Shown here: positions 1 through 23,342 of the stretch, in pieces | Position numbering within the stretch: the first letter of the stretch is position 1 | Layout: every line of letters starts with the position of its first letter | Assembly: GCA_045106235.1 (NCBI GenBank) | Contig: JBGCEJ010000010.1 | Coordinates: 72,991 to 136,990 of the forward strand | DNA length: 64,000 bases | Source of the DNA: Myxococcota bacterium | GTDB lineage: Bacteria > Myxococcota_A > UBA9160 > UBA4427 | Direction: 5' to 3' | Made by a program: the position numbers and the translations under genes | Notes under the pieces: model-generated | What the model was told of the DNA's origin: nothing | What the model saw: the letters and a program-made list of their open reading frames with translations, nothing else | Database searches by the model: none

Positions 1-40
1 GGTGCGCCCCGCTTCGCGATCGATCGCGAGAGGCTTCCGC

Positions 41-1777
41 ATGTCCGCGCTTCGCTTGCTCCCGAACGCTGAACTCGACCGACAGGTGGCGTTCGGCGAG
101 GCGGGGAACAAGACCGTGCGCGAGCTGCTTTCGGATGCGGGCCGCATTGCGGCGGCTCTTCCCGAGGCCACGCCCGGTTCACATGTGCTGCTTGTCATCG
201 ATCGGGATCGCTACGCGATGGCGGTTTCCTTTCTGGGGGCCATCGCGGCGGGCCACGCCGTGGCGCTTCCTCCGAATTCACGGAGGGATTCGGTGCTCGC
301 GGTGCATGACCGAGAAGAGACGGTCGCGACGATTCATGACTCCGATGCGGGGATGCATTTTCGGTTTGAAAAGTTGCTCGAAGCCGGGGCCGGAGCGCCT
401 CCGCTCCCCCCCGATTTTTCCGTTTCTGATTTGGACGCGCCGATTCTGGCAACGGTTTTCACTTCGGGCTCGACCGGGCCCATGGCCGCTTGGCCTAAAT
501 CGCCCGGGGCTTTGCTGGGCGAGGGGAGGGTGTTAGGCGATCTCTTCGACGTCTCCGCCGAGGAACGGATCGTCGGCACCGTGGCGCCGGGGCATATCTA
601 CGGGTTGCTCTTTACCGTCCTTCTGCCGCTGCTTCGGGGGGCCGCGTTTTGTCGTGATACGCCGCTTCACGCGGAGGCGGTGGCCCGCGCGGTTTCGACC
701 TTTGACGCGACGGTGCTGGTGACGGTTCCGGTTCAGCTGCGGGCGTTAAACGGACTTTCTTCGGAGGCGTTTCCGAATCTGAAGCGCGTGTTCTCCTCGA
801 CCGGCCCCTTGCCCGCCGATATTTCGGATGCTTTCCGCGCGCGGCATGGCCTCAGCGTGACCGAAATTTTCGGATCCACCGAAACCGGAGGGATTGCCTA
901 CCGCGAGCGCGCAGGCGAATCGCCCGGCGGTGACGAGTGGTGGACGCCGTTGACTTCGGTGCGGGTCTCGGGGGGGGCGGATGGCCGACTGCGCGTGGAC
1001 TCGCCCTTTGTCGACCGGTCTGGGTTCGAGACGGAGGATCTCGTTCGCATCGAGGAGGATGGTCGATTTACCCATCTTGGGCGCGCGGATGGCGTCGTGA
1101 AGATCGGGGGGCGACGGGTTCAGGTGGGCGAAGTCGAGGAGTGCATTCGACAGCATGAGAGCGTGATTGACGCGGCGGTCGTTGCCGTCCCCGCTTCGGG
1201 CGCGCGGGGGCATCAGCTCCTGGCGGCGATCGTTCCAGAGACGGCCTCGACGGATGAAATTCGCAAGGCGCTGCTGAAGCGGTTCGAACCTTCTTGCCTG
1301 CCAAGGCGGATGCTTCGCGTGTCTGCGCTGCCCCGGGAAGAAAACGGCAAGCTCTTGCGTGCGCGCCTACTTCGACTCTTCGGTCTTCGCGCGGATGGTC
1401 ATGCTGAGAATTGGAAGATGGATTGGCGGCCCGCTGTTCGGAGCCGGGATGGCGAAGCCGAACGCGTTGAAGTGGAAGTCGACCTCCCCGACGACTACGC
1501 GTGGTTCGAAGGCCATTTTGACGACTACGCGGTCCTGGCCGGGGCGGCGCAGCTCAAGGAGCTGATTTTGCCCGCGGTCGAAAGCGCGTTTCCGGATCTT
1601 GGCCGCTTGGAATCCATGAACCGGGTGAAGTTCCTCGAGCGGATCGTGCCGGGTGCTGCGCTGCGAATCACGCTGGTTCACGAAGATTCCTCCGCGCGGG
1701 TGCAGTTTCGAATCGATGAGCGCGACGGGGCCACCTGCTCTGCGGGGCATTTGATTTTCGCCGGGCCCGATGCATGA
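41..1777 (+). CDS. AMP-dependent acyl/aryl ligase fused to a C-terminal FabA/FabZ-like hotdog dehydratase domain
   Basis: ORF 2..1777 reaches the window edge. ATG at 41 follows GAGAGG. Adenylation core motifs are FTSGSTGPMAAWPK, EIFGSTETGG and GRADGVVKIGGRRV. The last ~125 aa carry FEGHFDDYAVLAGAAQL, a hotdog-dehydratase-like His motif. The stop overlaps the next start (ATGA). Confidence 0.85.
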   Translation: MSALRLLPNAELDRQVAFGEAGNKTVRELLSDAGRIAAALPEATPGSHVLLVIDRDRYAMAVSFLGAIAAGHAVALPPNSRRDSVLAVHDREETVATIHDSDAGMHFRFEKLLEAGAGAPPLPPDFSVSDLDAPILATVFTSGSTGPMAAWPKSPGALLGEGRVLGDLFDVSAEERIVGTVAPGHIYGLLFTVLLPLLRGAAFCRDTPLHAEAVARAVSTFDATVLVTVPVQLRALNGLSSEAFPNLKRVFSSTGPLPADISDAFRARHGLSVTEIFGSTETGGIAYRERAGESPGGDEWWTPLTSVRVSGGADGRLRVDSPFVDRSGFETEDLVRIEEDGRFTHLGRADGVVKIGGRRVQVGEVEECIRQHESVIDAAVVAVPASGARGHQLLAAIVPETASTDEIRKALLKRFEPSCLPRRMLRVSALPREENGKLLRARLLRLFGLRADGHAENWKMDWRPAVRSRDGEAERVEVEVDLPDDYAWFEGHFDDYAVLAGAAQLKELILPAVESAFPDLGRLESMNRVKFLERIVPGAALRITLVHEDSSARVQFRIDERDGATCSAGHLIFAGPDA

Positions 1778-2544
1778 CAGAGTTTCGTTGCTGTGCGGTT
1801 GTGCCGACCTTTGAAAACCCTGAAACGATCCGATCCGTTGTGGAGTCGATTCGGGGGCATCTCGCGGACGTGATCGTGATTGATGACGGCAGCTCCCAGG
1901 CTGGGCGGGAGGCCTGTGCGGCCCTTGCGCGGGAAGGTCTCGCGGAGGTGACGCATCTCGCTGAGAATCGCGGCAAGGGGGCGGCGATGCGCGTGGGCTT
2001 TGCGGAAGCGGCGCGCTTAGGATTTAGCCATGCGTTTCAGATTGACGCGGATGGTCAGCATGATGCCGATGCGATCCCCGCCTTTATCGCGGCGGCGCAA
2101 GGCCAGCCTGCAGCCGCCGTGTTTGCGCGGCCCGTCTATGACGAGACGATTCCGCAGGCGCGGCGGATCGCTCGAAAGATCACACATTTTTGGGTGGACC
2201 TCGAGGTGGGGCGCGGCGTGATCGACGATGCCCTGATCGGCTTTCGAATTTACCCGCTCGCCGCCACGCGGTCGTTGGGGCTTGTCTGTGACCGGATGGC
2301 TTTTGATGTCGAGGCCGCGGTGCTGCTGGCCTGGGCGGGCGTGCCGATCGTGAACCTGCCGGTTCGCGTGCGTTACCTGACAGCGGAGGAGGGCGGGCGT
2401 TCGCATTTTCACGTTGTTCGAGACAACGCTCGTTTGGCTTGGCTGCATTGTCGCCTCTGCACGACGGCTTCGATTCGCTTCTGCTTTGGTCGTCCCGCGC
2501 GGCGACAGCGCCCGACCTCGTCTTCATTTTCGGAGTCCTCATGA
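1774..2544 (+). CDS. family 2 glycosyltransferase
   Basis: VVPTFENPETI, VIVIDDGSSQ and FQIDADGQHD (DxD) are the GT-A/GT2 signature. Translationally coupled on both sides (ATGA overlaps). Confidence 0.85.
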   Translation: MTEFRCCAVVPTFENPETIRSVVESIRGHLADVIVIDDGSSQAGREACAALAREGLAEVTHLAENRGKGAAMRVGFAEAARLGFSHAFQIDADGQHDADAIPAFIAAAQGQPAAAVFARPVYDETIPQARRIARKITHFWVDLEVGRGVIDDALIGFRIYPLAATRSLGLVCDRMAFDVEAAVLLAWAGVPIVNLPVRVRYLTAEEGGRSHFHVVRDNARLAWLHCRLCTTASIRFCFGRPARRQRPTSSSFSESS

Positions 2545-3464
2545 GCGCGTCGGCGGAGCGAGGCGAGGCCGCATGGCTTAGCCAGCGCGAACGCGGGACC
2601 GTTGCGGCGCTCCGGCTTGCCACGATCTGGGCGACGCTTCTCGGGCGTCGATTGTCGCGGCCGATGGTCCATTTGATCGCGCTCTACTACGCCCTCTTTG
2701 ACAAAGAGGTGAAGCGCGTCTCTCGGGCTTGGTTCACTCGGTTGACGGGAGAGGCGCCCACATTCAGTCGCGTCTATCGCCATATTCTCACCTTTGTGCA
2801 GGTCACGCTCGATCGGCTCTATTTTACTTCGGGACGTGTGGCGCCCTTCGCGATCACGCGGACCGGCAACCAGCATTTGCTCGCGCAAGCGCGCTCGGGC
2901 CAAGGGGCGATTTTGCTCGGCGCCCACGTGGGGAGCTTCGAGGCCATGCGCGCTTCGGGCGGTGACGAGCGGATGCCGATCTCGATCGTGGGGACCTGGG
3001 AGAACGCAAAGATGATCAATGCTTTGTTGAGTTCTTTCGATCCCGAGATGCCGGCTCAGGTAGTGCATACCGGAGGTGATCCCGTGAGCCTTGCGCTCAC
3101 GTTGCGGGAACGGATTGCGGAGGGGCATCTGCTGGCGATGATGGCAGACCGAGTGGGGCCGAACGAAAAAACCGTCGAGGTTGATTTCTTCGGCGAGAAG
3201 GCGTCTTTTGCCGCGGGTCCCTTTCTGCTGGCCTCGGTTCTGAAATGCCCCGTCTTCATTGTTTTCGGGATTTATACCGAGCCGAATCGCTACGATTTGT
3301 ACTGTGAACCCTTCGCGGAGAAGATCGTTTTGCCGCGAGGGGACCGCGAAGCAGGGCTGGAAAAAGCCGTGACGGAGTACGCCGCGCGTTTAGAGAGCTA
3401 CGCTCGTAGGGCGCCCGAGAACTGGTTCAACTTTTTCGACTTCTGGGAGAAGCCGACTCGATGA
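2541..3464 (+). CDS. LpxL/HtrB-like lipid (lysophospholipid/lipid A type) acyltransferase
   Basis: In-frame ATG at 2541 overlaps the upstream stop. GAILLGAHVGSFEAM fits the HX4(D/E) acyltransferase motif. Size and position match the acyltransferase of aryl-polyene-type clusters. Confidence 0.7.
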   Translation: MSASAERGEAAWLSQRERGTVAALRLATIWATLLGRRLSRPMVHLIALYYALFDKEVKRVSRAWFTRLTGEAPTFSRVYRHILTFVQVTLDRLYFTSGRVAPFAITRTGNQHLLAQARSGQGAILLGAHVGSFEAMRASGGDERMPISIVGTWENAKMINALLSSFDPEMPAQVVHTGGDPVSLALTLRERIAEGHLLAMMADRVGPNEKTVEVDFFGEKASFAAGPFLLASVLKCPVFIVFGIYTEPNRYDLYCEPFAEKIVLPRGDREAGLEKAVTEYAARLESYARRAPENWFNFFDFWEKPTR

Positions 3465-5044
3465 GTTCCGCAGAAAAAGAACCCCTGGCGGTCTCAGGTT
3501 CAAACGCCGCGGGGAAGAGGCCCGACGCGATTCCCGGCGCCTCGGCCACAGATTGGGCTGTCGGCGAGGGCACGCTCGGCATCTCGGACTTGGTCCGCCT
3601 CGCAAAGGGCGAAGGCCGCGCCATTCTTTCCGAAGGTGCGCAGGCACGGATCAGCCGAAGTGCTGAGGTCTTTGCGAAACTCCACGCTCGGGGGGATGCG
3701 ATCTACGGCGTGACGACGAGCGTGGGAGGCTCGGTGGGAACGGCGGTTCCTAAGGCGCAGTCTGCAGACCTTTCCTTGAACGTCTTGCGCATGCATGGCT
3801 GTGGTTTTGGACGCATCCTGGATGAGGTTGAAGCCTCGGCCGTCATCTTGGTGCGCCTTTCTTCGTTGTCGCACGGGATGAGCGGAATCCGCTTGGTCGT
3901 CGCCGAGCGTCTCGTTGAATTGCTGGATCGCGGCATCCTCCCTCAAATTCCTTCGGAAGGCTCGGTGGGCGCGAGCGGGGATCTCACACCCCTGTCCTAC
4001 GTGGCCGCTTTGTTGGTGGGCGAACGTGAGGTCTTCTACCGCGGTGAGTCGCGTATCGCGAGCGAAGTGCTCGAGGAAGTTGGGCTGCCCGCCCTCCGGC
4101 TCGACCCCAAAGAGGCGCTGGCCTTGATGAACGGGACGAGTGTTGCGACGGCGATCGCTTGTCTTGCTTGGGACCGCGCGCGGAGACTCGCGCGGGTGGC
4201 GTCTTCGGTGGCCGCTGCAACCACCTTGGCCATTGATGGAAACGCGACGCATTTCGATGCGCGGATTCATGCGGCGAAGCCCCACGCGGGGCAGAAGCAG
4301 GCGGCCGACTGGATTCGGGCTGATCTCGAGGGCATGCCTTCGCCGGGCGCTTCGACGCGTCTTCAGGATCGCTATTCCGTGCGCTGTGCGCCGCATGTGA
4401 TCGGCGTTTTGGTGGACTCGCTTTCCTGGGCCGAGACGCTCTTGGAAACGGAACTGAATGGGGTGAGCGATAACCCCATCGTCGACGTGGAGGCGGAGGA
4501 AGTCCTTCACGGCGGGAATTTCTATGGCGGCCATGTGGCGCAGGCCTGCGATAGCTTGAAGACCGCCGTGGCGAGCGTGGCCTGCTTGCTGGATCGCCAG
4601 GTGATGCTGTTATGTCATCCTGAAGAGAACGGCGGACTGCCGACGGATCTGGTCGGAGTGGAGGGGCCGGAAGCCTGCGCGCATAATGGATTTAAGGCGG
4701 CGACGATTGCGGCTTCGAGCATGGCCGCCGAAGCCATGAAGCTGACGATGCCCGCGAGCGCCTTTAGTCGGAGCACCGAGCTGCATAACCAGGACAAAGT
4801 TCCGATGGCGACGACGGCGGCGCGGGATTTACTGCGGATGGTGGAGCTCGCGGAGCAAGTTCTGTCGATCGCGCTTCTGGCGACCTGCCAGGCGATGGAT
4901 TTGCGCGGTCTAGGGGGCGAAGGGGCCCTTGCGGAGATGCGGGAGACGATTCGGGCTGAAGTGCCGCGGGTTGTCGAAGATCGGCGAATGGATCTCGACT
5001 GGGCCTCGGTTCTTGCGATGCTTCGGGGCGGTCGACTCGGATGA
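3461..5044 (+). CDS. MIO-dependent aromatic amino acid/histidine ammonia-lyase (HAL/PAL/TAL family)
   Basis: GSVGASGDLTPLS contains the Ala-Ser-Gly triad that forms the MIO cofactor. The 527-aa length and overall collinearity match HAL/TAL. ATGA overlaps on both ends. Confidence 0.9.
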   Translation: MSSAEKEPLAVSGSNAAGKRPDAIPGASATDWAVGEGTLGISDLVRLAKGEGRAILSEGAQARISRSAEVFAKLHARGDAIYGVTTSVGGSVGTAVPKAQSADLSLNVLRMHGCGFGRILDEVEASAVILVRLSSLSHGMSGIRLVVAERLVELLDRGILPQIPSEGSVGASGDLTPLSYVAALLVGEREVFYRGESRIASEVLEEVGLPALRLDPKEALALMNGTSVATAIACLAWDRARRLARVASSVAAATTLAIDGNATHFDARIHAAKPHAGQKQAADWIRADLEGMPSPGASTRLQDRYSVRCAPHVIGVLVDSLSWAETLLETELNGVSDNPIVDVEAEEVLHGGNFYGGHVAQACDSLKTAVASVACLLDRQVMLLCHPEENGGLPTDLVGVEGPEACAHNGFKAATIAASSMAAEAMKLTMPASAFSRSTELHNQDKVPMATTAARDLLRMVELAEQVLSIALLATCQAMDLRGLGGEGALAEMRETIRAEVPRVVEDRRMDLDWASVLAMLRGGRLG

Positions 5045-5445
5045 GTTCGATTCGGGCCCGCGTGGAGTTCGAAGTTCCGTTTCATGACTGCGACCCGCTG
5101 CAGATCGTTTGGCATGGGCGCTATTTCGAATATTTCGAACTGGCTCGCACGCAACTGTTCCGCGAGCGTCAACTCGATATTCCGGCTGTTCGCGATCTGG
5201 GGCTGCGGATGTACGTCGCCGACGTGCGCTGTCGTTTTACCTCGCCTCTGACGTACGGCGACCGGGTAGAGGTGGTGGCGATCGCGAAGGAAGCGAGTCC
5301 TTTGATCCGGATTGCGTATGCTGTCCGCAATCTGACAAAGGACCGACGCAGCGCGCGAGGACATTGCGTTCTCGCGACGACGGACGCCCAGGGCGAGCTT
5401 CTCACGGAGACGCCGGAAATTATCCGCGAGCGCCTTCTCGGTTAG
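5041..5445 (+). CDS. 4-hydroxybenzoyl-CoA thioesterase/YbgC-like hotdog thioesterase
   Basis: 134 aa. FHDCDPLQIVWHGRYFEYFELAR is the typical 4HBT/YbgC N-terminal catalytic Asp region. Confidence 0.8.
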   Translation: MSSIRARVEFEVPFHDCDPLQIVWHGRYFEYFELARTQLFRERQLDIPAVRDLGLRMYVADVRCRFTSPLTYGDRVEVVAIAKEASPLIRIAYAVRNLTKDRRSARGHCVLATTDAQGELLTETPEIIRERLLG

Positions 5446-5492
5446 GCGCGGGGATTGATCTCCAGCGGACGGCGAGGCGAAGGGGGAATGGG

Positions 5493-6281
5493 GTGAAGGC
5501 CGGCTTGCGTACACATCTTCGAAGGGGTCGGCCTTTCGTGAGGTTGATCGCGCTCGGGGCGGTTTTTTGTTTTTCGCTGTTGGCTTCGTTTGGAGCGGCC
5601 CTTTCGGCGAAGGCCGACGAGCCGAAGTCGGTCAAGGAACTCCTCGCCGCTTTTCGTGAGATGCCCGGTTTCGAGGCGCGCTTCGTCGAGGATAAGCATC
5701 TGGCGCTGCTCGCGATTCCTTTGCGCAGTGAGGGGCGGCTTTATTTCGCGCCTCCGGCGCTGCTTCTGCGGGATGTTCTTTCGCCGTCGCCGCAGCGGGT
5801 GCTCCTGCAGGGGAACCAGGTGCGTCTGTCCTCGGGGCCGGGAGCCAATGGTGCGAGCGATCCCAGTGGCGTTGTCCGCGAGCAGGTCATCGACCTTTCG
5901 GCGCGACCTGAAATCAGGCCGTTGGTTGAATCTGTGCTTTGGTTGTTAAGCGGCGATGAGGCCGCTCTGGAAGGTGCCTTCGAAATCGAATTCGTGCCGT
6001 CTAAGTTGGAAGCGGATACGTTGGAAGCGGAATCCGGGGGAGACGAGTGGATACTGCGTTTGATTCCCCGAGACGACGCTCTCGCTCAACTGCTCGCACG
6101 CCTTGTTGTTCGCGGTCGTGGAATGGAAACGACTGAAATCGCCGTCGAGGAAAGTTCGGGCGATCGCTCTGTGATGCGTATCCTGGAGCCGAATCCCGCG
6201 CGTGTGTTCTCCGAGGCGGAGCGCGAGTCGATCTTTGGGACCCGGGAGAAGGCTGAACGCGCCGCGGTCCGGAATGAGTAA
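5493..6281 (+). CDS. LolA-like outer-membrane lipoprotein carrier family protein
   Basis: GTG at 5493 lies 6 nt after AGGGGG. Signal peptide is LIALGAVFCFSLLASFGAALSAKA. It sits between the thioesterase and the MMPL exporter, as in aryl-polyene-type clusters. The longer ORF-track version (5109) overlaps the thioesterase and was not used. Confidence 0.6.
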   Translation: MKAGLRTHLRRGRPFVRLIALGAVFCFSLLASFGAALSAKADEPKSVKELLAAFREMPGFEARFVEDKHLALLAIPLRSEGRLYFAPPALLLRDVLSPSPQRVLLQGNQVRLSSGPGANGASDPSGVVREQVIDLSARPEIRPLVESVLWLLSGDEAALEGAFEIEFVPSKLEADTLEAESGGDEWILRLIPRDDALAQLLARLVVRGRGMETTEIAVEESSGDRSVMRILEPNPARVFSEAERESIFGTREKAERAAVRNE

Positions 6282-8697
6282 GGGGCGCGTGGTTGGGGCC
6301 GGGGCGCGGCTGCTCTTGGGCGGACTTCTGCTGTTGGCCTTGGCCGCTTTCGTCGTTCGGAACTTCGCCGTCTCGACCGAGATTACGCATTTCTTGCCCG
6401 ATCCTGAAGATCGAGCGCTGTCAAAGCTCTCTCGCCAAATCACAGAAAGCGAACTCAGCCGGACGCTGATCCTCGCGATCGATACGCCGGATCTCGAAAC
6501 GAGCCTCGTTGCGAGCCGTGCGCTTGAAGCGGCGATTCGGAGCGATCCCCTTCTGGCCGAAGCACTTTCCTTCCTGGAGGGCGGTCCAGCGGAGGGTGTC
6601 GATCGCACGCTTTTTGAGATCTACGAGCCCCGCCGGCTTGGCCTGTTTGCGAAATCGCCCGAAGCGGCGCAGCTGCGACTCTCTGACGACGGACTAAGAC
6701 AGGCCGCACGTGCGCTCCGCGCGGAGCTCGCAGGGCCCCTGGGCGCGTTGGCCGCGCGAGTGGCTCCCGAAGATCCATTTCTCACGCTGCCCACTCTGTT
6801 TCGGAATCTTGAGGCGGGGCGCGTTGGCGGGCTGACCGTATCCGAAGGGCGCTTTGTGACGGAAGGGGGGCGGACGGCGATTCTCTTCGCTGGGACGAAG
6901 GCTTCGGCTCTCGATGCTTCGGCGCAGGCCCCGTTTCTGGCGACGCTCCGCGCGCTCTTCGAACGGGTTGAAGGCGAGGTGGGCGCGCCAATTCGACTCG
7001 ATCTCAGCGGGGTGCATCCCATGGCAACGCGCACGGCTGAAACGATCGAGGCGGATATCAAGCGCGTTTCCCTGATTTCGAGTCTGACGCTCGTGCTGCT
7101 GCTGCTGGTTCTTTTTCGGAGCCTGCGCTTTATCCTGGTTGCGGCGGTGCCGGTTGTGTTTGGGATGGTCACGGGGATGGCCGCGGTCCTGCTGTTATTC
7201 GGTGAGCTGCATGGCATCACCTTGGCCTTTGGCGCCGCGCTGATCGGGGTCTCGGTGGACTACGTGGTCCATCTCTACTGTCATCACGGCGTAGTTGCGC
7301 CGAGAGGCGGCGCGCCGGCGTCGCTGCGTAGGATTATCTGGCCTCTGGGCACCGGCGCCATCACAACCGCCGCGGGTTTTTTAGCGCTCGCGGCGTCGAG
7401 CCTGGCGGGGCTCAGAGAAGTGGCCTGCTTTGCGGTCAGCGGTTTGCTCAGCGCTTTTGTGGCGACGGTGCTTTGTGTGCCGGCGCTCATCGGGGGGGAG
7501 GCACCTCCGGTCGCAGCGCGCGCGCGCTGGGTCGAGTTCCTACAGGACCGCTTCGAGCGCATGCAGGACCGCCCTGCATTGTTAGGTCTTCTGCCGGCCC
7601 TGGCGATCGGCGTGATCATCTGGGGGGCACCGCATCTCGCCTGGAATGCAGACGTTTCAAGCTTCAGCCGGTTGGACCCCGAAGTTCAGGCGGAGGATGA
7701 ACGCGTGCGAGCGAAGGTCATGCCTTTCGAGCAGTCTCGTTTCGTGGTGGCGCTCGGGAATACGGATGAACAGGCGCTGGCGGCGAATGATCAGGTCGCG
7801 GCGGCGCTTGACGAAGCCATCCAGGCCGGCGAGCTGGGGGCGATGCGGAGCGTGGCGATGCTTCTGCCTTCTCCTACAACGCAAAGAGCCGTCTCTGTGG
7901 CGGTGCGCGAGGCGGAGGACTTGCCGGCGCGTTTCGCTCGGATCTTCGCCGAGGAGGGCTTTGCCGCAGGAGCCTTTGAGCCCTTTCTCTCGAGTCTGAA
8001 GGCGCCTGCTCCCGAGCCGGTGGACTACCCGCTTCTGCTGGCTTCCTCTGCTGCTGCGCTGGTTCGACCTTTTCGCGTCACGCTCGGCGACCGGGTGGGG
8101 ATTCTGACGTTCCTGAATGGTGTGGAAGACGCGGCAGCAATCGAGGCGCGGCTCTCGCCGAATGAAGACATTTTGTTTCTTCGTCAAGCCGACCTCTGGG
8201 AGGAGGCGCAGCGCGCCTACCAAGCCAGCACCGCGCGTCTTCTTCTCCTCGGATTGGCGGCGGTCCTGGCGCTCCTCGCGCTCCGGTACCGCGATCTGCG
8301 ACGTACTCTGGTTGCCTTTGCGCCCTCGGTTCTCGCTGCGGGCGTGACAATCTGTGTGCTCGCGTTGATGGGGCGAGGGGTGGATCTGATTTCGCTGACG
8401 GCGCTGCTCTTTGTGGTGAGCATGGGCGTTGATTATTGTGTGTTCTTGGTTGATGCGGCCGACGAGCCGGACGAGCGGAGTGTGGCGGCGGCGCTGACCG
8501 GGGCGCTTCTGGCAGGCGTCTCGACGGTGGCGGCCTTTGGTCTCCTGGGGACATCTATGCATCCCGTCCTTTCGAGTCTCGGGATCACGGCGGCAGTGGG
8601 GATTGCGACGAGTCTCTTGCTCGCGCCTGTCACGCTTTTGCTGTTAGGCCCTTCAAGTCGAGACGTTTCGGTCGGGCACGACGAGGGGGCTGGATGA
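6274..8697 (+). CDS. MMPL/RND-superfamily membrane exporter
   Basis: ~807 aa. Two blocks of ~5-6 hydrophobic helices, each preceded by a large soluble loop. The start ATG at 6274 overlaps the upstream stop region. Confidence 0.8.
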   Translation: MSKGRVVGAGARLLLGGLLLLALAAFVVRNFAVSTEITHFLPDPEDRALSKLSRQITESELSRTLILAIDTPDLETSLVASRALEAAIRSDPLLAEALSFLEGGPAEGVDRTLFEIYEPRRLGLFAKSPEAAQLRLSDDGLRQAARALRAELAGPLGALAARVAPEDPFLTLPTLFRNLEAGRVGGLTVSEGRFVTEGGRTAILFAGTKASALDASAQAPFLATLRALFERVEGEVGAPIRLDLSGVHPMATRTAETIEADIKRVSLISSLTLVLLLLVLFRSLRFILVAAVPVVFGMVTGMAAVLLLFGELHGITLAFGAALIGVSVDYVVHLYCHHGVVAPRGGAPASLRRIIWPLGTGAITTAAGFLALAASSLAGLREVACFAVSGLLSAFVATVLCVPALIGGEAPPVAARARWVEFLQDRFERMQDRPALLGLLPALAIGVIIWGAPHLAWNADVSSFSRLDPEVQAEDERVRAKVMPFEQSRFVVALGNTDEQALAANDQVAAALDEAIQAGELGAMRSVAMLLPSPTTQRAVSVAVREAEDLPARFARIFAEEGFAAGAFEPFLSSLKAPAPEPVDYPLLLASSAAALVRPFRVTLGDRVGILTFLNGVEDAAAIEARLSPNEDILFLRQADLWEEAQRAYQASTARLLLLGLAAVLALLALRYRDLRRTLVAFAPSVLAAGVTICVLALMGRGVDLISLTALLFVVSMGVDYCVFLVDAADEPDERSVAAALTGALLAGVSTVAAFGLLGTSMHPVLSSLGITAAVGIATSLLLAPVTLLLLGPSSRDVSVGHDEGAG

Positions 8698-8724
8698 GGC
8701 AGCTGAATGATTGAGGGAAGCTGG

Positions 8725-9447
8725 ATGCGATCTAAGGCGCTGATGCTGTTCCTGCTCGCTCTAAGCCTGGTCTTCGCGGGCTGTGAGAGTGCGAAGCGGG
8801 GCCCGGAGAGTCGGGAGGAATTCGCCGCTGAGTCGAGAACCGAGGTTCAGCAGGGCGCGGCCGATCTCCTTCCGGCGACCGCGCTCGCACGGCATTTTGT
8901 GTTGCGGCAGCGAGTGGCGATCCGTTGGCAGGACGAATCGGGGAAGCGCGACGAGGCTTCCTTTGATGCGGCGATTCAGCGGCAGGGCGATTCGCTCTTG
9001 CTGCTCGGGTTAGGACCGATGGGACAGGTGGGATTCCTATTGCGGCTCGAAAACGGTGTGGTCCATTTCGAAAATCGGACGGGGCTCGCCTTGCCCTTCG
9101 AGCCCGCGCGGATGTTGGCTGACGTGCAGCGCGTCTACTATCCATGGTTCGAGCCGGTCACAGCCTGTGATACCTGTGTGCGACGCGCGCAGCGATCGCG
9201 GATCACGGTTGAAGAAACGCGTGCGGAGGGCGAGGTCCGCACACGGCGATTCTTCCAGGCGGCGAAGGCGGGCAGCGTGGGGGACGGAGAGGGTCCAGAG
9301 AGCAGAGAAGACGGAGAGGACGATGTGATCGTGCGCTATTCCGGGGCGCCTTGGCTGGATGGTTTGGGGCAGGACGCTCTGCTGCAGAGCGTCGGATTTG
9401 GATACGAGGTCGAGCTCAAGACGCAAAGTGTGGATTGGATCGATTGA
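8725..9447 (+). CDS. lipoprotein of unknown function (DUF3261-like position in cluster)
   Basis: ATG at 8725 follows GAGGGAAG. Lipobox is LALSLVFAGC. It is the last gene of the co-directional cluster. Confidence 0.55.
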   Translation: MRSKALMLFLLALSLVFAGCESAKRGPESREEFAAESRTEVQQGAADLLPATALARHFVLRQRVAIRWQDESGKRDEASFDAAIQRQGDSLLLLGLGPMGQVGFLLRLENGVVHFENRTGLALPFEPARMLADVQRVYYPWFEPVTACDTCVRRAQRSRITVEETRAEGEVRTRRFFQAAKAGSVGDGEGPESREDGEDDVIVRYSGAPWLDGLGQDALLQSVGFGYEVELKTQSVDWID

Positions 9448-9469
9448 TCGTTGGTGATAGCGTTTCGGT

Positions 9470-10723
9470 ATGACTGATTCCGATCCGCGTCCGAAACCGC
9501 TTTCTGGCCTCAAGGTTGTTGACTGTACCCGCGTCCTCTCTGGACCGATCTGTAGTCGAATGCTGTCTGATATGGGCGCCGAGGTCGTTAAGATTGAGGC
9601 GCCTGAATCAGATATTCTGCGCGCGACGCCGCCGCTCGTGGGCGGATTCGGTTCGATGTTCGCGCAGTACAACGTGGGCAAGCGAAACGTCTCGATCGAT
9701 TTGAAAAGCGAGGGTGGGTCTGCTCTGCTCGGACGTCTGGCGAAGGAAGCCGACGTGGTCGTGGAGAATTTTCGGCCGGGTGTGCTTGATCGGTTGGGGC
9801 TCGCACCGGACAAACTGCGCCGTGAGAACACGCGCCTGATTCTCTGCTCGATCACGGGATGGGGGCAGGAGGGGCCTTGGTCGAGTCGCCCGGCGTACGC
9901 GCCGATGGTTCAGGCGGAGGCCGGGACCTTGGCGATGGGGGCTGCGCTTCGCGGGAGTCGTCCACGCGGCGAGACGATGCAGCACGCGGATCTCTATGCC
10001 GGGATGATGGCTTGCCAGGCGATCGTGGCCGCGCTCTATCATCGTGAACGCACGGGCGAGGGCCAGCATCTCGACATCGCGATGGGCGAGGCGCTGCTTT
10101 ACGTGAATGAACATGCGACTGCGGAACGAGCGGGCTATCCGGGATCGAGCGGATTCCCGACCTGGAATTTCGAGTCCTTTGAGTTAGGGGACGGGAACTC
10201 AGTTCACGTGATGGGGCTGCCGGAGCAGATTTTTCCTCTGCTGGCGATGATGCTGCCGATTCCGGGGGCGCTTGAGGATCCGCGTTTCGCGACGGCAGAG
10301 GCGCGCGTGGCGAATCGCGATGCGATGGTGGATCGACTGGATGAAGCGATGTCGCAGGTGGCGGATCAGCCGGCACTCGAGGCGCTGCTTGCGGGGACAC
10401 CGCTCATTGTCGTGCCGGTTCGATCGACCCGGGATCTGGTGGCGTCGGAGTGGGCGAAGCATCGCGGGGTGATGACCGAGATCGAGCCGGGCTTCGAGGT
10501 ACCGACTGCGGCGTGGCGTGCGAAAGACCTTGCGATCGGGGCGCCCAACACGCGGATCGCACGCCGAGGCGAAGACAACCGCGCCGTGCTCTCAGAATGG
10601 CTGGACCTCGATGCCCAGGCGTGCGCAGAGCTCGAAGCTTTGGGCGTTCTCGAGTACGCCGACGAAGAGCCCCCGACCCTCGACGAGGCGCCCCGTTCAG
10701 CATTCCGAGACGAGGGCAGTTAG
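9470..10723 (+). CDS. family III CoA-transferase (CaiB/BaiF type)
   Basis: LSGLKVVDCTRVLSGPICSRMLSDMGAEVVKIE is the N-terminal Rossmann signature. The catalytic Asp context is HADLYAGM...TGEGQHLDIAM. Confidence 0.9.
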   Translation: MTDSDPRPKPLSGLKVVDCTRVLSGPICSRMLSDMGAEVVKIEAPESDILRATPPLVGGFGSMFAQYNVGKRNVSIDLKSEGGSALLGRLAKEADVVVENFRPGVLDRLGLAPDKLRRENTRLILCSITGWGQEGPWSSRPAYAPMVQAEAGTLAMGAALRGSRPRGETMQHADLYAGMMACQAIVAALYHRERTGEGQHLDIAMGEALLYVNEHATAERAGYPGSSGFPTWNFESFELGDGNSVHVMGLPEQIFPLLAMMLPIPGALEDPRFATAEARVANRDAMVDRLDEAMSQVADQPALEALLAGTPLIVVPVRSTRDLVASEWAKHRGVMTEIEPGFEVPTAAWRAKDLAIGAPNTRIARRGEDNRAVLSEWLDLDAQACAELEALGVLEYADEEPPTLDEAPRSAFRDEGS

Positions 10724-19192: not shown

Positions 19193-20842
19193 ATGAAAAT
19201 CGCGAACGAACAAGGTCGATCGATGGGGAAGCGCACCGGAGTGGGGGGTATGGTCAGTATGCTCTGCGCGTTCACTTTCGGATGTGCCTCGCCTGTGACG
19301 GATCACCCGGAATTTGACCTGAGTCGGGAACTCTCGGAGCTCGATGTGGTGGACTGCGTGGTCGAAGGCGCTGTTCGCCAGGTCGGCCGCAGCTTCGCCT
19401 ATCAAGAGCAGCCGCGTATGGCTCGGGTGACCGAGTTCGAGTGTGCTTCGATGGGGGGCACATTTGTCGCCTACGATGCCACGCGGCCGGACGCCGTCAT
19501 GGAGAAATGGTTGTCGTTCGCCGAGGGGGGTGATCCCGACGCGCAGCATCGTCTTGGCCTTCTCTATGAAGGCGCGATGGGGGCCGCTCCGGACTACAAG
19601 AAGGCGGCCTACTGGTACGGCCAGGCGGCGGATTCGGGGCATCGCGGAGCGATGTCTTCCCTGAGCGTGCTCTACGAAAAGGGGCTCGGGGTCGAGAAGG
19701 ACGTGCTGAAGGCGCTGAACCTTTACCGCGAATCTTCAGGGCTCTCGGGCGATAGCCTCATGCTTTCTTCGACTGCCTATGCCGAAATTGAAGAGGCGAA
19801 GGGCGAGCTCACGGACGAAATCGGGATGCTCCGGACTCAGCGCGAAGCGCTGACGGCGCAGGTTTCGGCTTTGACCCGCTCCTCCGCTTCCCGAGATGCG
19901 GCGAGTGCCAAGAAGGTCAAAGCGCTCCAGTCTCTTGTTTCGGATCTCAACCAGAAAGTCTCGAAGAAGGAAGAAGTGCTCGTCGCGATGCCTTCTTACA
20001 GATTGCTGCAGCGCGATGCGAATCCGTCGCGGGTGACGGAGTTTGATTTCCCGAAGTTGCCGACCAAGAAGCTTGGGAAGCGAACGGTCGGCCAGTTCTA
20101 CGCTCTGGTGATCGGGAATACGAAATACGAAAAGATGCCGGATCTCCAGACCCCGCGGAATGATGCGGAAGTGATCGCATCGCTTCTGACGAATCGGTTT
20201 GGGTTTTCGACGCAGCTTCTCCTCGATGCCAATGAGGAAGAAATTAAGCGCGCGATTCATAAACTGAACGGCGTGGCCGGAGAGAAAGATAATATTCTGC
20301 TCTACTTCGCCGGTCATGGACATCGCAAGAAGGGGACGGATCGGGCTCGCTTAAATGGGTATTGGCTGCCGACGAACGCGGACCAAGACCAGGACGTGAA
20401 CTGGGTCGATAATTGGTGGGTGACGAATCACCTGGACACCTCCATCGCCAAGCGCGCGCTCGTGATCGCGGATTCCTGCTACGGCGGCGTCTTCTCGACG
20501 GATCTTCCGATTGGTCCGGTGACGCAGCTTCCGCCGCTCGGTGAAGCCGATTTTGAAAAGAAGCTCGAACGAAAGAGCCGCTTCGTCTTGGCCTCGGGTG
20601 GCGAGCAGCCCGTTCTGGATGCGACGGGTCCGGGCTCGGAACATTCCGTTTTTGCGGGGGCCTTGATTGAGGTGCTGCAGCAGAGCGAAGGCCCCATGTC
20701 CGTCGTTGAGCTGTACGGGCGGGTGTTTGACCGGATGTACGATGCGCTCAAGTCGACGGGGATTAAGCAAGAGCCGGAGCTGCGCGTGATCCGCGCGGCC
20801 GGCCATCAGAGCGAGGGCGACTTTTTCTTCGTCGCGAACTAG
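19193..20842 (+). CDS. lipoprotein with Sel1/TPR repeats, a coiled coil and a caspase-like (peptidase C14) domain
   Basis: Lipobox is LCAFTFGC. Sel1 repeats include AQHRLGLLYEGAMG...YKKAAYWYGQAADSGH and AMSSLSVLYEKGLGV. The caspase His/Cys dyad contexts are LLYFAGHGH and LVIADSCYGG. The gene starts 22 nt after the preceding gene. Confidence 0.85.
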   Translation: MKIANEQGRSMGKRTGVGGMVSMLCAFTFGCASPVTDHPEFDLSRELSELDVVDCVVEGAVRQVGRSFAYQEQPRMARVTEFECASMGGTFVAYDATRPDAVMEKWLSFAEGGDPDAQHRLGLLYEGAMGAAPDYKKAAYWYGQAADSGHRGAMSSLSVLYEKGLGVEKDVLKALNLYRESSGLSGDSLMLSSTAYAEIEEAKGELTDEIGMLRTQREALTAQVSALTRSSASRDAASAKKVKALQSLVSDLNQKVSKKEEVLVAMPSYRLLQRDANPSRVTEFDFPKLPTKKLGKRTVGQFYALVIGNTKYEKMPDLQTPRNDAEVIASLLTNRFGFSTQLLLDANEEEIKRAIHKLNGVAGEKDNILLYFAGHGHRKKGTDRARLNGYWLPTNADQDQDVNWVDNWWVTNHLDTSIAKRALVIADSCYGGVFSTDLPIGPVTQLPPLGEADFEKKLERKSRFVLASGGEQPVLDATGPGSEHSVFAGALIEVLQQSEGPMSVVELYGRVFDRMYDALKSTGIKQEPELRVIRAAGHQSEGDFFFVAN

Positions 20843-20912
20843 CGCGCGTCAGACTTTGCGTCGCGCTACGCTTTCGCCGGACCGCGTGAGTGGGTCTGGA
20901 GGGAGTGAAGCG

Positions 20913-21359
20913 ATGGAAACGAACGATGTGGTGGCAGATTTTCGTGCCCAAAATCAGGACGGCAAAGAGGTGAGCCTCTCCGGGCTGCTAGAGGGTGGCC
21001 CCCTTGTGCTCTTCTTCTATCCGAAGGCGATGACCCCGGGTTGAACGCGCGAAAGCTGTCATTTCCGCGATTTGGCCGCTGAGTTCGAGGAACTCGGTGC
21101 TCAGCGCGTGGGGATCAGCGCCGATCCGGTGGATCGGCAAAAAGCGTTCGACGACAAAAATGGTTTGGGCTTTCCGCTGCTTTCGGACCCAGGTCGCGAG
21201 GTCGCGAAGCTTTTCGGGGTGAAGCGGTTCGGTCCACTCCCGAGCAAGCGAGCGAGTTTTGTGATCGATACGGACCGGAAGGTCCTGGGTGTGATCCGAA
21301 GCGAGATGGACATGGACGGACACGCGGATCAGGCGCTTTCGATTTTGAAGTCGCGCTAG
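20913..21359 (+). CDS. bcp: Bcp/PrxQ-type peroxiredoxin with in-frame TGA (candidate selenocysteine) at the peroxidatic Cys position
   Basis: ORFs 20856..21044 and 21072..21359 are in the same frame, separated only by TGA at 21042-21044. The joined sequence reads FFYPKAMTPG-U-TRESCHFRD, matching the Bcp motif PGCTxExC with the resolving Cys kept 5 residues downstream. ATG at 20913 follows GGAGGGA. Confidence 0.75.
21048..21069 (+). promoter_or_regulatory. candidate SECIS-like hairpin downstream of the peroxiredoxin UGA
   Basis: CGCGAAAG / loop CUGUCA / UUUCCGCG gives 7 pairs plus one A-C mismatch. The apical loop contains GU about 17 nt from the UGA. Confidence 0.4.
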
Positions 21360-21412
21360 GCCGCGCGGTCTGATCGCCGGAAAGAGTCTGGATGCGCCGG
21401 AATGCGCCGGGC

Positions 21413-21697
21413 CTAGTCTTCTGACTGGACGACCACGACCACGTCGCGAATCTCGGGGGCTTGGTCCGCGAGCATATCCTTCATCATGCCGGCCAGCGCA
21501 TTGGGCTCCATGATGCATTCCACGCATTGTTCATTCACGCCCTTGGCGTAGGCGACGCTGAGCTGATCGCCCTCGATTCGAAGCAGGGACACGCTGCCGC
21601 CGTCGGGTTTTACGATTTCGTCGAAGGCTTCGATCACGGCCTGGACGGCGGGGTTGACGGGGGGGAGGGCTGATGTCTCGGTCGCGGACGCACTCAT
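21413..21697 (-). CDS. NifU-like (Nfu-type) CxxC domain protein
   Basis: 94 aa. It has a KPDGGSVSLL...segment followed by QCVECIM (CxxC), as in NifU C-terminal domains. The start overlaps the upstream stop (ATGA at 21694-21697). Confidence 0.7.
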   Translation of the reverse strand: MSASATETSALPPVNPAVQAVIEAFDEIVKPDGGSVSLLRIEGDQLSVAYAKGVNEQCVECIMEPNALAGMMKDMLADQAPEIRDVVVVVQSED

Positions 21698-22260
21698 CGA
21701 TCGGCTCCGGTTTTTCCGCAGAGGCGTTCGATCACCGTTGGCGCGACCGCTTCAGCGAGGTTTTGGATCTCGGAATCGCTCCACATCGCAGTGGGGATCC
21801 AAGGGTAGTCGACGACCACGAAATCGTAGTCGGGATGTCCTGAGAGTCGCGCCATGGACTGGGCTGATCCGCGGACGGCTTCATGAATGATCGGGACAGC
21901 GGCAATGCCGGCCCACTCGAGTTCGATTGCGTCGCGCAAACTGCGCGCACTGCAGGAGCCTCAACCCCCGAAGCCGGTAATCGCGACCGAGACCTCCGAA
22001 GTGAGGCGCGCCCAGTCTGTGGGTTCCGGGGGGACGGAGACGCCGGCTTTAAGGACGTGGACCGAGGCGCTCGGGTTGGCCCGTCGCTCGATTTCGTCGC
22101 CGAGGGCGAGCATGAAATCTTCGCTGCGCCCGAGGCCGTTGGTCACGAGGCCGATCACTTGGCCGTCAAGGCTTGCGGGCCGGGAAGCCAGTTCGCGGTC
22201 GCCTTTGCGTTGGAGTGGTCCGCTTGTCGGATCGAGTCCGATGAGACTTTTTTGCGTCAT
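21694..22260 (-). CDS. UGSC-motif protein with in-frame TGA (candidate selenoprotein)
   Basis: Minus-strand ORFs 21961..22260 and 21694..21939 share one frame. The only interruption is TGA at 21963-21961. Read-through gives ...AITGFGG-U-GSC-SARSLRDAIELEW (a U-x-x-C redox motif). There is no SD before the TTG that opens the second ORF. GAAGGAG precedes ATG 22260. Confidence 0.7.
21931..21950 (-). promoter_or_regulatory. candidate SECIS hairpin downstream of the UGSC-gene UGA
   Basis: On the minus strand, 10 nt after the UGA: GU(G)CGCGCA / loop GUU / UGCGCGAC. This is an 8-bp GC-rich stem with one bulged G and G/U in the apical loop. Confidence 0.5.
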
Positions 22261-22306
22261 TCGAGCGCTCCTTCTGAGGTCGGCAGAGTCGGTGGGCTAT
22301 TCGGTG

Positions 22307-23287
22307 TTAGGCCGGGTCGATGTGTTGTGTGATGGCCCAGGCGAGATGAGGGAAGAAGATCCAGGTTGAGGCCATGCCGCGGCCGCCGGCGGCCACCAAT
22401 AGGAAACCTTCGGGGCCGGCGACGGAGACGGGGCGTTGGCCGGGCCCGGGATTGCGGCTCTTTTCGAAGAGGCGCTCGCGGATTTGAGTCTTGCTCCAGC
22501 CGGCTTCGAGGAAGAAGCGCTGATGCTCGGGACCGATCACCATCAGGACCGTGCCGTGTTCGAGGAAACGGTCCGCATAGACGCCCTTGCGCATTAACTC
22601 GTCGAGCCAAACATCACAGATGGCTTCCGGACTTCGGCTCTCGAAGTCGGCGACCTCGGCGACGCTCATTGCGGAATGGACGGTGACCGCGCTTTGGTCC
22701 CGACGGAGTCCTCGGTCGACATGGAGCGGTGTCCAGTCGCTTGCCGCCTCGTTTTCGCCGAAGCAGAAGGAGTAGCGGAACGGGCTCGCGAAGCTCGCGC
22801 GATCGAGAAAGCCTGGAATCGCTCGGCACACGTTTCGGATGACGAGGCGAAGCGCGCGGCCGATCGTGGCATTCGCGCGAAAGCCGGGTCCGAAGCAGCC
22901 TTCGCCGCATTCGATGTCGATCTCGTCTCGAACCGGTCCATTGACGACGACGATTTGCGAAGCGCCCGAGAGGGTGCCCGTGGTGCTATGGCAATTGCCT
23001 TTCTCGTGAAGGTGAGCGCGAACGGCGGCGACGACGATGGGGAAATAGCTGGGACGGCATCCGGCCATTACGGCGTTGATCGCCGCTTGTTCCGCGGTCA
23101 CCACGACTTCGCGGGTGGCGACTTCGCCGAGGATGGCATCCGGAGCGAGTCCGGCGACTGCGAGGAAGGCCTCGACTGCCTCGGGTGTGGGGGGCACGAT
23201 CGGAAGCCCGTCGGTCCAGCCGCGGGCGTCGTAGTCTTCGGCCAGGGCCGCATAGTCTTCGTAGGCGTGGCGTTCAGCGTTCAGCAT
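22307..23287 (-). CDS. conserved hypothetical protein (no family recognised)
   Basis: Long open frame with normal composition. ATG at 23287 was chosen because the 23383 start would overlap the upstream gene. Cys-rich core is HEKGNCHSTTG...IECGEGCFGPGFRAN. It lies 46 nt upstream of the UGSC gene. Confidence 0.6.
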   Translation of the reverse strand: MLNAERHAYEDYAALAEDYDARGWTDGLPIVPPTPEAVEAFLAVAGLAPDAILGEVATREVVVTAEQAAINAVMAGCRPSYFPIVVAAVRAHLHEKGNCHSTTGTLSGASQIVVVNGPVRDEIDIECGEGCFGPGFRANATIGRALRLVIRNVCRAIPGFLDRASFASPFRYSFCFGENEAASDWTPLHVDRGLRRDQSAVTVHSAMSVAEVADFESRSPEAICDVWLDELMRKGVYADRFLEHGTVLMVIGPEHQRFFLEAGWSKTQIRERLFEKSRNPGPGQRPVSVAGPEGFLLVAAGGRGMASTWIFFPHLAWAITQHIDPA

Positions 23288-23342
23288 CACCCCAAACGGT
23301 ACACCTCGGATTCGCCGCCCGCATGGGCCTTCCTGAGGGCCT

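Follow-up and report, generated by a model that had tools for sequence, protein, structure and literature searches.

A UGSC-Family Gene with an In-Frame UGA, a Putative SECIS Hairpin and a Constant Partner Gene in a Myxococcota Bacterium

Introduction

The UGSC family of selenoproteins was the fifth most abundant prokaryotic selenoprotein family by sequence count in the Global Ocean Sampling (GOS) survey (PMC2398784), where 255 sequences carried selenocysteine (Sec) and 21 carried cysteine in its UxxC motif (Zhang & Gladyshev 2008, PMC2398784). The authors of that survey considered the fold "likely" thioredoxin (Trx)-like and found the protein sometimes fused to a domain that they named Unknown_1 (PMC2398784), and a 2026 review places NF041046, the NCBIfam model of the family, among the selenoproteins whose "biological functions remain largely uncharacterized" (PMC13188914). 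Here we analyze a gene at positions 21694–22260 of a 64-kb stretch of DNA from a Myxococcota bacterium (64,000 nucleotides of contig JBGCEJ010000010.1, in the following called the window), which we read, with a probability of about 0.93, as a single UGSC-family selenoprotein gene with its own selenocysteine insertion sequence (SECIS).

The best described bacterial SECIS is that of Escherichia coli, a SelB-binding stem-loop at nucleotides 15–31, positioned 11 nt from the UGA, with a bulged U17 and, in its apical loop, U24 and the SelB-contacting G23 (PMC8659212). The hairpin of the window resembles that of E. coli fdhF in lying within the coding sequence directly 3′ of the UGA, its stem starting some 10–11 nt after it. 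With the UGSC family the window shares a match over the whole profile, an identical G-F-G-G-U-G-S-C motif and the alternation of Sec and Cys; Sec forms exceed Cys forms as they do in the GOS data, and the gene is likewise linked to Unknown_1, given the probable identity of its partner. It differs from the described family in scoring below the NF041046 cut-off (76 against 125) and in that the model of a homologue is flavodoxin-like, where the literature has Trx-like. The locus adds a further member to a family already described in the 2008 GOS survey, an attribution that will not surprise a selenoprotein specialist; new here are the constant partner of ~327 aa, the UGSC fusions, the flavodoxin-like model and the neighbouring second selenoprotein gene.

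Results and Discussion

Gene Structure and Family Membership

The features on which the argument is built are the following.

21694–22260, minus strand: putative UGSC-family selenoprotein gene, 188 codons including Sec100; ATG at 22260–22258, true stop TGA at 21696–21694.
21961–21963, minus strand: in-frame UGA, read as the selenocysteine codon (the U of U-G-S-C), at the Sec/Cys column of the homologues.
22268–22274, minus strand: Shine-Dalgarno sequence GAAGGAG, 7 nt before the UGSC ATG, as read from the sequence.

Two minus-strand open reading frames (ORFs), 22260–21961 (99 aa, starting with ATG) and 21939–21694 (81 aa, starting with TTG), lie in the same frame, and the sole stop between them is the TGA at 21963–21961, which can be read directly and is as the initial annotation of this DNA had described it. 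Translation of 22260–21694 through the TGA agrees with the read-through product proposed there and gives ...VAITGFGG-U-GSCSARSLRDAIELEW.... The TTG at 21939–21937, the nominal start of the second ORF, indeed lacks a Shine-Dalgarno sequence; it is the Leu codon at SECIS positions 25–27 (numbered with the U of the UGA as 1). The true UGSC terminator is also a TGA, 88 codons past the Sec UGA, so that recoding must depend on local context, and it overlaps the ATG of a downstream NifU-like gene (ATGA, 21697–21694).

Such an arrangement of ORFs is common in this GC-rich window: a scan for in-frame TGA candidates returned 176 TGAs flanked on either side by 45 or more open codons, among which, judged by motif, only the UGSC gene and a peroxiredoxin gene stood out, the rest not having been compared with homologues. 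As the folding energy of the hairpin is ordinary too (see below), neither ORF geometry nor hairpin energy alone goes beyond chance; the case must rest on comparative evidence, and its significance comes from homology and comparison.

When the stop is written as Cys, the joined 188-aa product scores 133.5 bits against Pfam PF24696 ("UGSC family"; gathering score 25; E = 1.1e-38) over residues 9–181 and profile positions 3–171 of 172, both halves being covered. Its match to NCBIfam NF041046 ("UGSC family (seleno)protein") has 76 bits (E = 3e-21) and extends over profile positions 2–146 of 147. The attribution to this family and its origin in marine metagenome surveys, both given in the initial annotation, are thus borne out by PF24696, NF041046 and the GOS survey (Zhang & Gladyshev 2008, PMC2398784). 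The UGA of the window falls within GFGG-U-GSCS, at the conserved family column that follows G-F-G-G and that is occupied by Cys in full-length homologues.

A protein search returned 51 relatives of the joined sequence. The 35 top-scoring ones measure 151–263 aa and cover 80–97% of the query, and the aligned ones shown read GFGG-C-GSC across the junction. Another 15 measure 103–111 aa, are nearest to the N-terminal half (51–68% identity) and all end exactly at ...GFGG; the last is a weak 126-aa match covering 39% of the query. In the DNA of one of the "short" homologues the same TGA is followed in frame by GGC AGC TGC AGT GCG CGC, and the frame of the truncated homologues continues past the TGA with GSCSARS[LM]RD.... 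As judged from these sequences, the ~100-aa "terminating" homologues are evidently gene-caller truncations at the same in-frame TGA.

The Sec/Cys Column across Relatives

A scan of one genome per GTDB species yielded 80 loci, which together with two metagenome loci and the window make 83 sequences. The junction codon is TGA in 66 of these (the window and 65 loci) and TGC or TGT in the other 17 loci; no other codon occurs. The TGA set comprises Myxococcota and "Deltaproteobacteria" metagenome-assembled genomes, which are the closest relatives (62–70% identity), many Acidimicrobiia and Candidatus Poriferisocius, and also Dehalococcoidia and other Actinomycetota, while the TGC/TGT set consists of one gammaproteobacterium and 16 Actinomycetota. 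The expectation of the initial annotation that homologues would have Cys or TGA at this column therefore holds, with full-length GFGG-C-GSC relatives spanning the junction. The two outcomes that it had named as speaking against a selenoprotein were not found: homologues do not end at ~99 aa, the short records being truncations at the same TGA beyond which the frame continues, and no residue other than Sec or Cys is encoded at the column in the window and 82 loci.

When the window is compared with seven relatives, most differences upstream as well as downstream of the TGA are at third codon positions, and the downstream frame has no stop. Counted by codon position, the closest relative (locus L083, GCA_041690055.1) differs from the window at 4/3/32 sites upstream and 4/5/24 sites downstream of the TGA. 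The two are 86% identical over the whole alignment, within which window positions 21901–21963 form a 63-nt island with zero substitutions, in our reading a clear footprint of RNA-level constraint within coding sequence. Our case for one gene at 21694–22260 is that PF24696 spans both halves, that the coding frame stays conserved beyond the TGA, that the second ORF lacks a Shine-Dalgarno sequence and that the NifU-like gene is tied to the end of the read-through frame by its ATGA overlap.

The SECIS Hairpin

The hairpin was compared over 40 distinct Sec-type sequences.

21929–21950, minus strand: putative SECIS hairpin; 9-bp stem of nt 14–22 with 26–35, bulged A32 (21932), loop G23 U24 U25 (21941–21939).

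The initial annotation had proposed an 8-bp stem with one bulge and a GUU loop at 21950–21931. That stem, with G16 bulged, can be drawn, and its loop is the one given above; its lower part does not hold up as well, since the 9-bp stem with bulged A32 (21950–21929) fits the 40 homologues better, with 99.4% of the cells paired against 96.6% for the bulged-G16 stem. The bulged-A32 stem is also the minimum-free-energy fold. Pair 18–30 (21946/21934) is C-G in 25 and G-C in 15 of the sequences and is unpaired in none; both positions are synonymous third positions, of Ala (GCG/GCC) and Arg (CGC/CGG) codons, respectively. Each state is found both in Dehalococcoidia and in Actinomycetota, which means that the exchange between G-C and C-G has taken place more than once.

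G23 and U24 are invariant in a loop that reads G23-U24-(U/A)25. In Sec forms only, the Ser codon is fixed as AGT and the Leu/Met codon as TTG/ATG, whereas the corresponding codons in the 17 Cys forms are AGC, TCG, AGT or GCC. The Cys-type stem is 75% paired, with pair 18–30 broken in 7 and pair 21–27 in 8 of the 17; the stem decays in Cys forms.

The loop of the fdhF SECIS is a 4-nt GGUC, in comparison with which the family hairpin has a 3-nt loop, GUU or GUA. The bulge, too, is placed differently from that of fdhF, being A32 on the 3′ side (or G16) and not U17. G23 (21941) and U24 (21940) are found at exactly the loop positions that they have in E. coli, and from these comparisons we take the hairpin to be a bacterial SECIS with SelB-type geometry.

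Several observations weigh against this assignment of gene and hairpin. The NF041046 match, end to end as it is, stays at 76 bits and does not reach the equivalog cut-off of 125; the score suggests that the protein belongs to a divergent (Myxococcota-type) branch and is still a member of the family. Folding energy, which we considered as support for the hairpin and rejected, does not set it apart from shuffled sequence (z = −0.40 over 39 nt, where 58 of 200 shuffles fold equally well, and +0.43 over 71 nt). Rfam searches of the window at the gathering threshold, and of 20700–22400 at E ≤ 10, gave neither a SECIS nor another relevant family. A double change is seen in one stem pair only, 18–30, and invariance at the other stem positions could in part reflect the conserved peptide SARSLRD. 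Lastly, there is no tRNA in the 64-kb window and no SelA, SelB or SelD domain in its ~39 main ORFs, negatives that are uninformative for a stretch of 64 kb; with no Sec machinery in the window, the Sec competence of the organism can only be inferred.

Other Explanations of the UGA

Three other explanations of the in-frame TGA were considered. The one that survives best, improbable as we consider it to be, is read-through in which the residue inserted at the UGA is mostly not Sec but one such as Cys or Trp, brought in by near-cognate decoding or by SelB-mediated misincorporation, for instance under selenium limitation. The Sec machinery can insert Cys at UGA when selenium is scarce, and the lack of visible Sec machinery in the window would fit. 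The conserved SECIS, with G23 and U24 at SelB-type spacing, argues for Sec instead, as does the excess of TGA over Cys (66 against 17 here, and 255 against 21 in the GOS data, PMC2398784), which points to selection for Sec; and since the gene's own terminator is also TGA, general read-through is unlikely.

Sec decoding in this organism is further supported by a second Sec-type gene nearby, the peroxiredoxin gene that stood out in the TGA scan.

20913–21359, plus strand, convergent: Sec-type BCP/PrxQ-type peroxiredoxin gene, split by TGA 21042–21044, ~350 nt beyond the UGSC cassette.

The joined peroxiredoxin matches AhpC-TSA with 122.6 bits over profile positions 3–121 of 124. Its motif is ...FYPKAMTPG-U-TRESCHFRD, of which TPG-U fits the "Prx, TxxU" family of the GOS survey (PMC2398784). 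A stem-loop follows the TGA at 21046–21069. L083 has the same split peroxiredoxin, and the sole change in its hairpin, G10-C24 to G10-U24, keeps the pairing. The UGA lies at what we take to be the expected site of the peroxidatic Cys of a BCP-type peroxiredoxin.

Highly improbable, in our assessment, is a real stop, with a 99-aa protein ending at the TGA and possibly a separate 81-aa protein starting from TTG 21939. The databases sampled do annotate "UGSC" fragments of 98–111 aa and ~77 aa, and the energy of the hairpin is unexceptional; yet 17 homologues read straight through with a Cys codon, the frame downstream is conserved with third-position-biased substitutions and no stops, and the end-to-end Pfam match is obtained only for the joined protein. 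The synonymous sites around the TGA are frozen, and the TTG, besides having no Shine-Dalgarno sequence, sits inside the hairpin loop and 3′ stem arm. A pseudogene, or a Cys codon turned into TGA by faulty sequencing or assembly, can be set aside as having a negligible chance: TGA is one substitution from TGC or TGT and Cys forms exist, but the same TGA recurs in 65 independent loci from several phyla, closed chromosomes included, always together with AGT-GCS-CGC-AGT-WTG-CGS, which is absent from Cys forms.

The locus ought to be annotated as a single Sec-containing gene. Every database record sampled splits UGSC into two "hypothetical" fragments; the peroxiredoxin next door has the same split-annotation problem.

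The Partner Gene

Beside the UGSC gene lies a second gene that accompanies it throughout the loci compared.

22307–23290, minus strand: partner gene, ~327 aa, start placed from homologues; immediately upstream of the UGSC gene.

By tblastn, all 82 loci of the first set have the partner next to UGSC; it precedes the UGSC gene in Sec forms and follows it in actinobacterial Cys forms, and the pairing thus survives a change of gene order. The reverse check gave the same picture, all 4 partner homologues sampled having a split UGSC gene directly beside them. The partner probably corresponds to the Unknown_1 domain named in the GOS survey (PMC2398784). It has more than 7,980 homologues, from a search in which 8,000 candidates were scored, and all 120 source names listed read "hypothetical protein". 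No Pfam family matches it even at E ≤ 10 and no NCBIfam family does; neither the partner nor UGSC has a PDB sequence match in single-sequence or profile searches.

The AlphaFold model of the partner is of high overall confidence (predicted local distance difference test, pLDDT, 88.5; predicted template-modelling score, pTM, 0.90). Partial Foldseek matches of this model to Toblerone-fold cyclic amide hydrolases, YjgF-like domains and class I fumarate hydratase have template-modelling (TM) scores of ~0.2–0.3 and E ≥ 1.7e-3, and were rejected as homology. Among close homologues N99-C100-H101-S102-T103, C132, C155 and C176 are invariant; residues 103–105, at the end of the N99–T103 motif, form a low-confidence stretch of the model.

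Predicted Fold of UGSC

The UGSC fold was modelled on P0001, the closest Cys homologue (62% identity). Its AlphaFold model (pLDDT 91.7) consists of five β–α units, with Cys98, the equivalent of Sec, between strand 90–94 and helix 99–114. In the PDB, Foldseek matches it best to a diflavin flavoprotein domain, WrbA and flavodoxin, with probabilities up to 1.0, and the descriptions of the top 50 matches name no thioredoxin-fold protein. On this model UGSC is predicted to be flavodoxin-like, and not thioredoxin-like as the literature assumes. With thioredoxin-fold CxxC/UxxC oxidoreductases, such as Trx-like and peroxiredoxin (Prx)-like selenoproteins, it would share the position of the UxxC motif at the N-terminal end of a helix; the thioredoxin fold itself is a mixed sheet (β-α-β-α-β-β-α), in place of which UGSC is predicted to have five parallel β–α units.

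GrdB and PrdB of glycine and D-proline reductase act with partner subunits, and the window offers a similar picture of a small UxxC selenoprotein beside a larger partner subunit. This is an analogy only: a relationship to GrdB/PrdB (PF07355) found no support in the sequences, there being no PF07355 match even at E ≤ 10, and neither UGSC nor the partner has a PDB sequence or fold match to those enzymes. The GOS table lists PrdB as UxxC (PMC2398784).

Fusions and the NifU-Like Gene

A profile search of 1.84 billion cluster representatives gave 1,236 UGSC clusters, and fusions were drawn from the best 150 of these. Among them are four fusions of UGSC with the partner (P0188, P0204, P0277 and P0281), two with a NifU domain (P0211 and P0219) and one with Pyr_redox_2 (P0267), whose thioredoxin-reductase-like domain has a CGTC motif. 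P0188 is 42% identical to the partner of the window (E = 6e-71) and has a C-terminal tail with a CAEC motif, which resembles the NifU-like protein weakly (E = 0.21). P0267, as a UGSC member fused to a thioredoxin-reductase-like flavoprotein, parallels the known fusions of Trx with thioredoxin reductase (TrxR). P0246, where a TetR N-terminal domain comes after UGSC, was a further candidate; its linker looks garbled, and we set it aside as a probable frameshift artefact.

21413–21697, minus strand: NifU-like protein, 94 aa (Pfam PF01106, 27.7 bits).

Cys58 and Cys61 of the C-x-x-C motif of the NifU-like protein are invariant in the alignment. Of 88 related loci, 28 have a NifU-like ORF; these belong to the Myxococcota-type Sec clade or to the actinobacterial Cys loci, of which many have it. 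Because its ATG overlaps the UGSC stop (ATGA), the NifU-like gene of the window is probably translated in a coupled manner, by ribosomes that have passed through the Sec codon.

A Possible Two-Protein Redox System

The comparisons establish a single gene, its Sec/Cys column, a conserved and covarying SECIS and a constant genetic partnership that the fusions confirm, and on this basis a mechanism can be sketched. The SelB pathway would deliver Sec-tRNA at UGA100, with the SECIS at 21950–21929 presenting apical G23 and U24. UGSC would be a small (βα)5 flavodoxin-like domain in which the short loop joining strand 3 to helix 3 is predicted to hold Sec, with the invariant Cys103 three residues further on (U-G-S-C, a UxxC redox motif). 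Sec100 and Cys103 would then cycle between selenol/thiol and selenenylsulfide, so as to make UGSC a redox-active subunit or carrier for the ~327-aa partner enzyme; the NifU-like CxxC protein would be an accessory in some lineages, and reducing power would come ultimately from a thioredoxin-reductase-type flavoenzyme. Sec insertion in vivo, the selenenylsulfide chemistry and the direction of electron flow are what we infer here, and the specific redox-relay model, with UGSC as the U-x-x-C subunit of a two-protein system, is put forward tentatively.

More broadly, we propose, at slightly less than even odds, that UGSC and its ~327-aa partner, joined in some lineages by the NifU-like CxxC protein, make up an uncharacterised selenium-dependent redox enzyme. 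In it catalysis would fall to the partner, which would have a new fold, and UGSC would be a flavodoxin-fold selenol/thiol carrier reduced by a thioredoxin-reductase-type enzyme; the system would occur widely among Acidimicrobiia, Myxococcota and Dehalococcoidia of marine and fresh waters. Four points count against the functional model. The analysis identifies no substrate for UGSC. The cysteines of the partner are not all kept in distant fusions, only Cys78 (AVMAGC) being present in all four examined. The fold was modelled on P0001 and not on the protein of the window, and the Foldseek TM-scores of that model, 0.4–0.5, are those of generic matches. The strict pairing with the partner, the NifU-like and thioredoxin-reductase-like fusions and the predicted flavodoxin-like fold make a concrete starting point for work on UGSC function.

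Other Genes in the Neighbourhood and the Window

Neighbourhood clustering across the loci revealed no gene besides the partner that is conserved in all lineages. Neighbours that recur, as judged by eye, are a crotonase, an SDR, a luciferase-like monooxygenase, an amidohydrolase_2 and a CoA-transferase III, all from large paralogous catabolic families and uninformative.

The window has a catabolic set of its own at 27036–57169, which comprises a double CoA-transferase III, a molybdopterin oxidoreductase (no in-frame TGA seen), at least six SDRs, two luciferase-like monooxygenases, a KshA-like Rieske oxygenase, an amidohydrolase_2 and three acyl-CoA dehydrogenases, one of them double-length (815 aa); the set suggests steroid or lipid degradation. 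A same-strand run at 2–10723 (plus strand) encodes an AMP-binding enzyme, a family-2 glycosyltransferase, a lipid-A-type acyltransferase, an aromatic amino acid ammonia-lyase (490 bits), a LolA-like protein, an MMPL-type transporter, a DUF3261 protein and a CoA-transferase III, and resembles a gene cluster for making an aryl-containing lipid or pigment. Finally, 19193–20842 (plus strand) encodes a 549-aa protein with Sel1 repeats and a caspase-like Peptidase_C14 domain, which is found at the same place in the syntenic L083.

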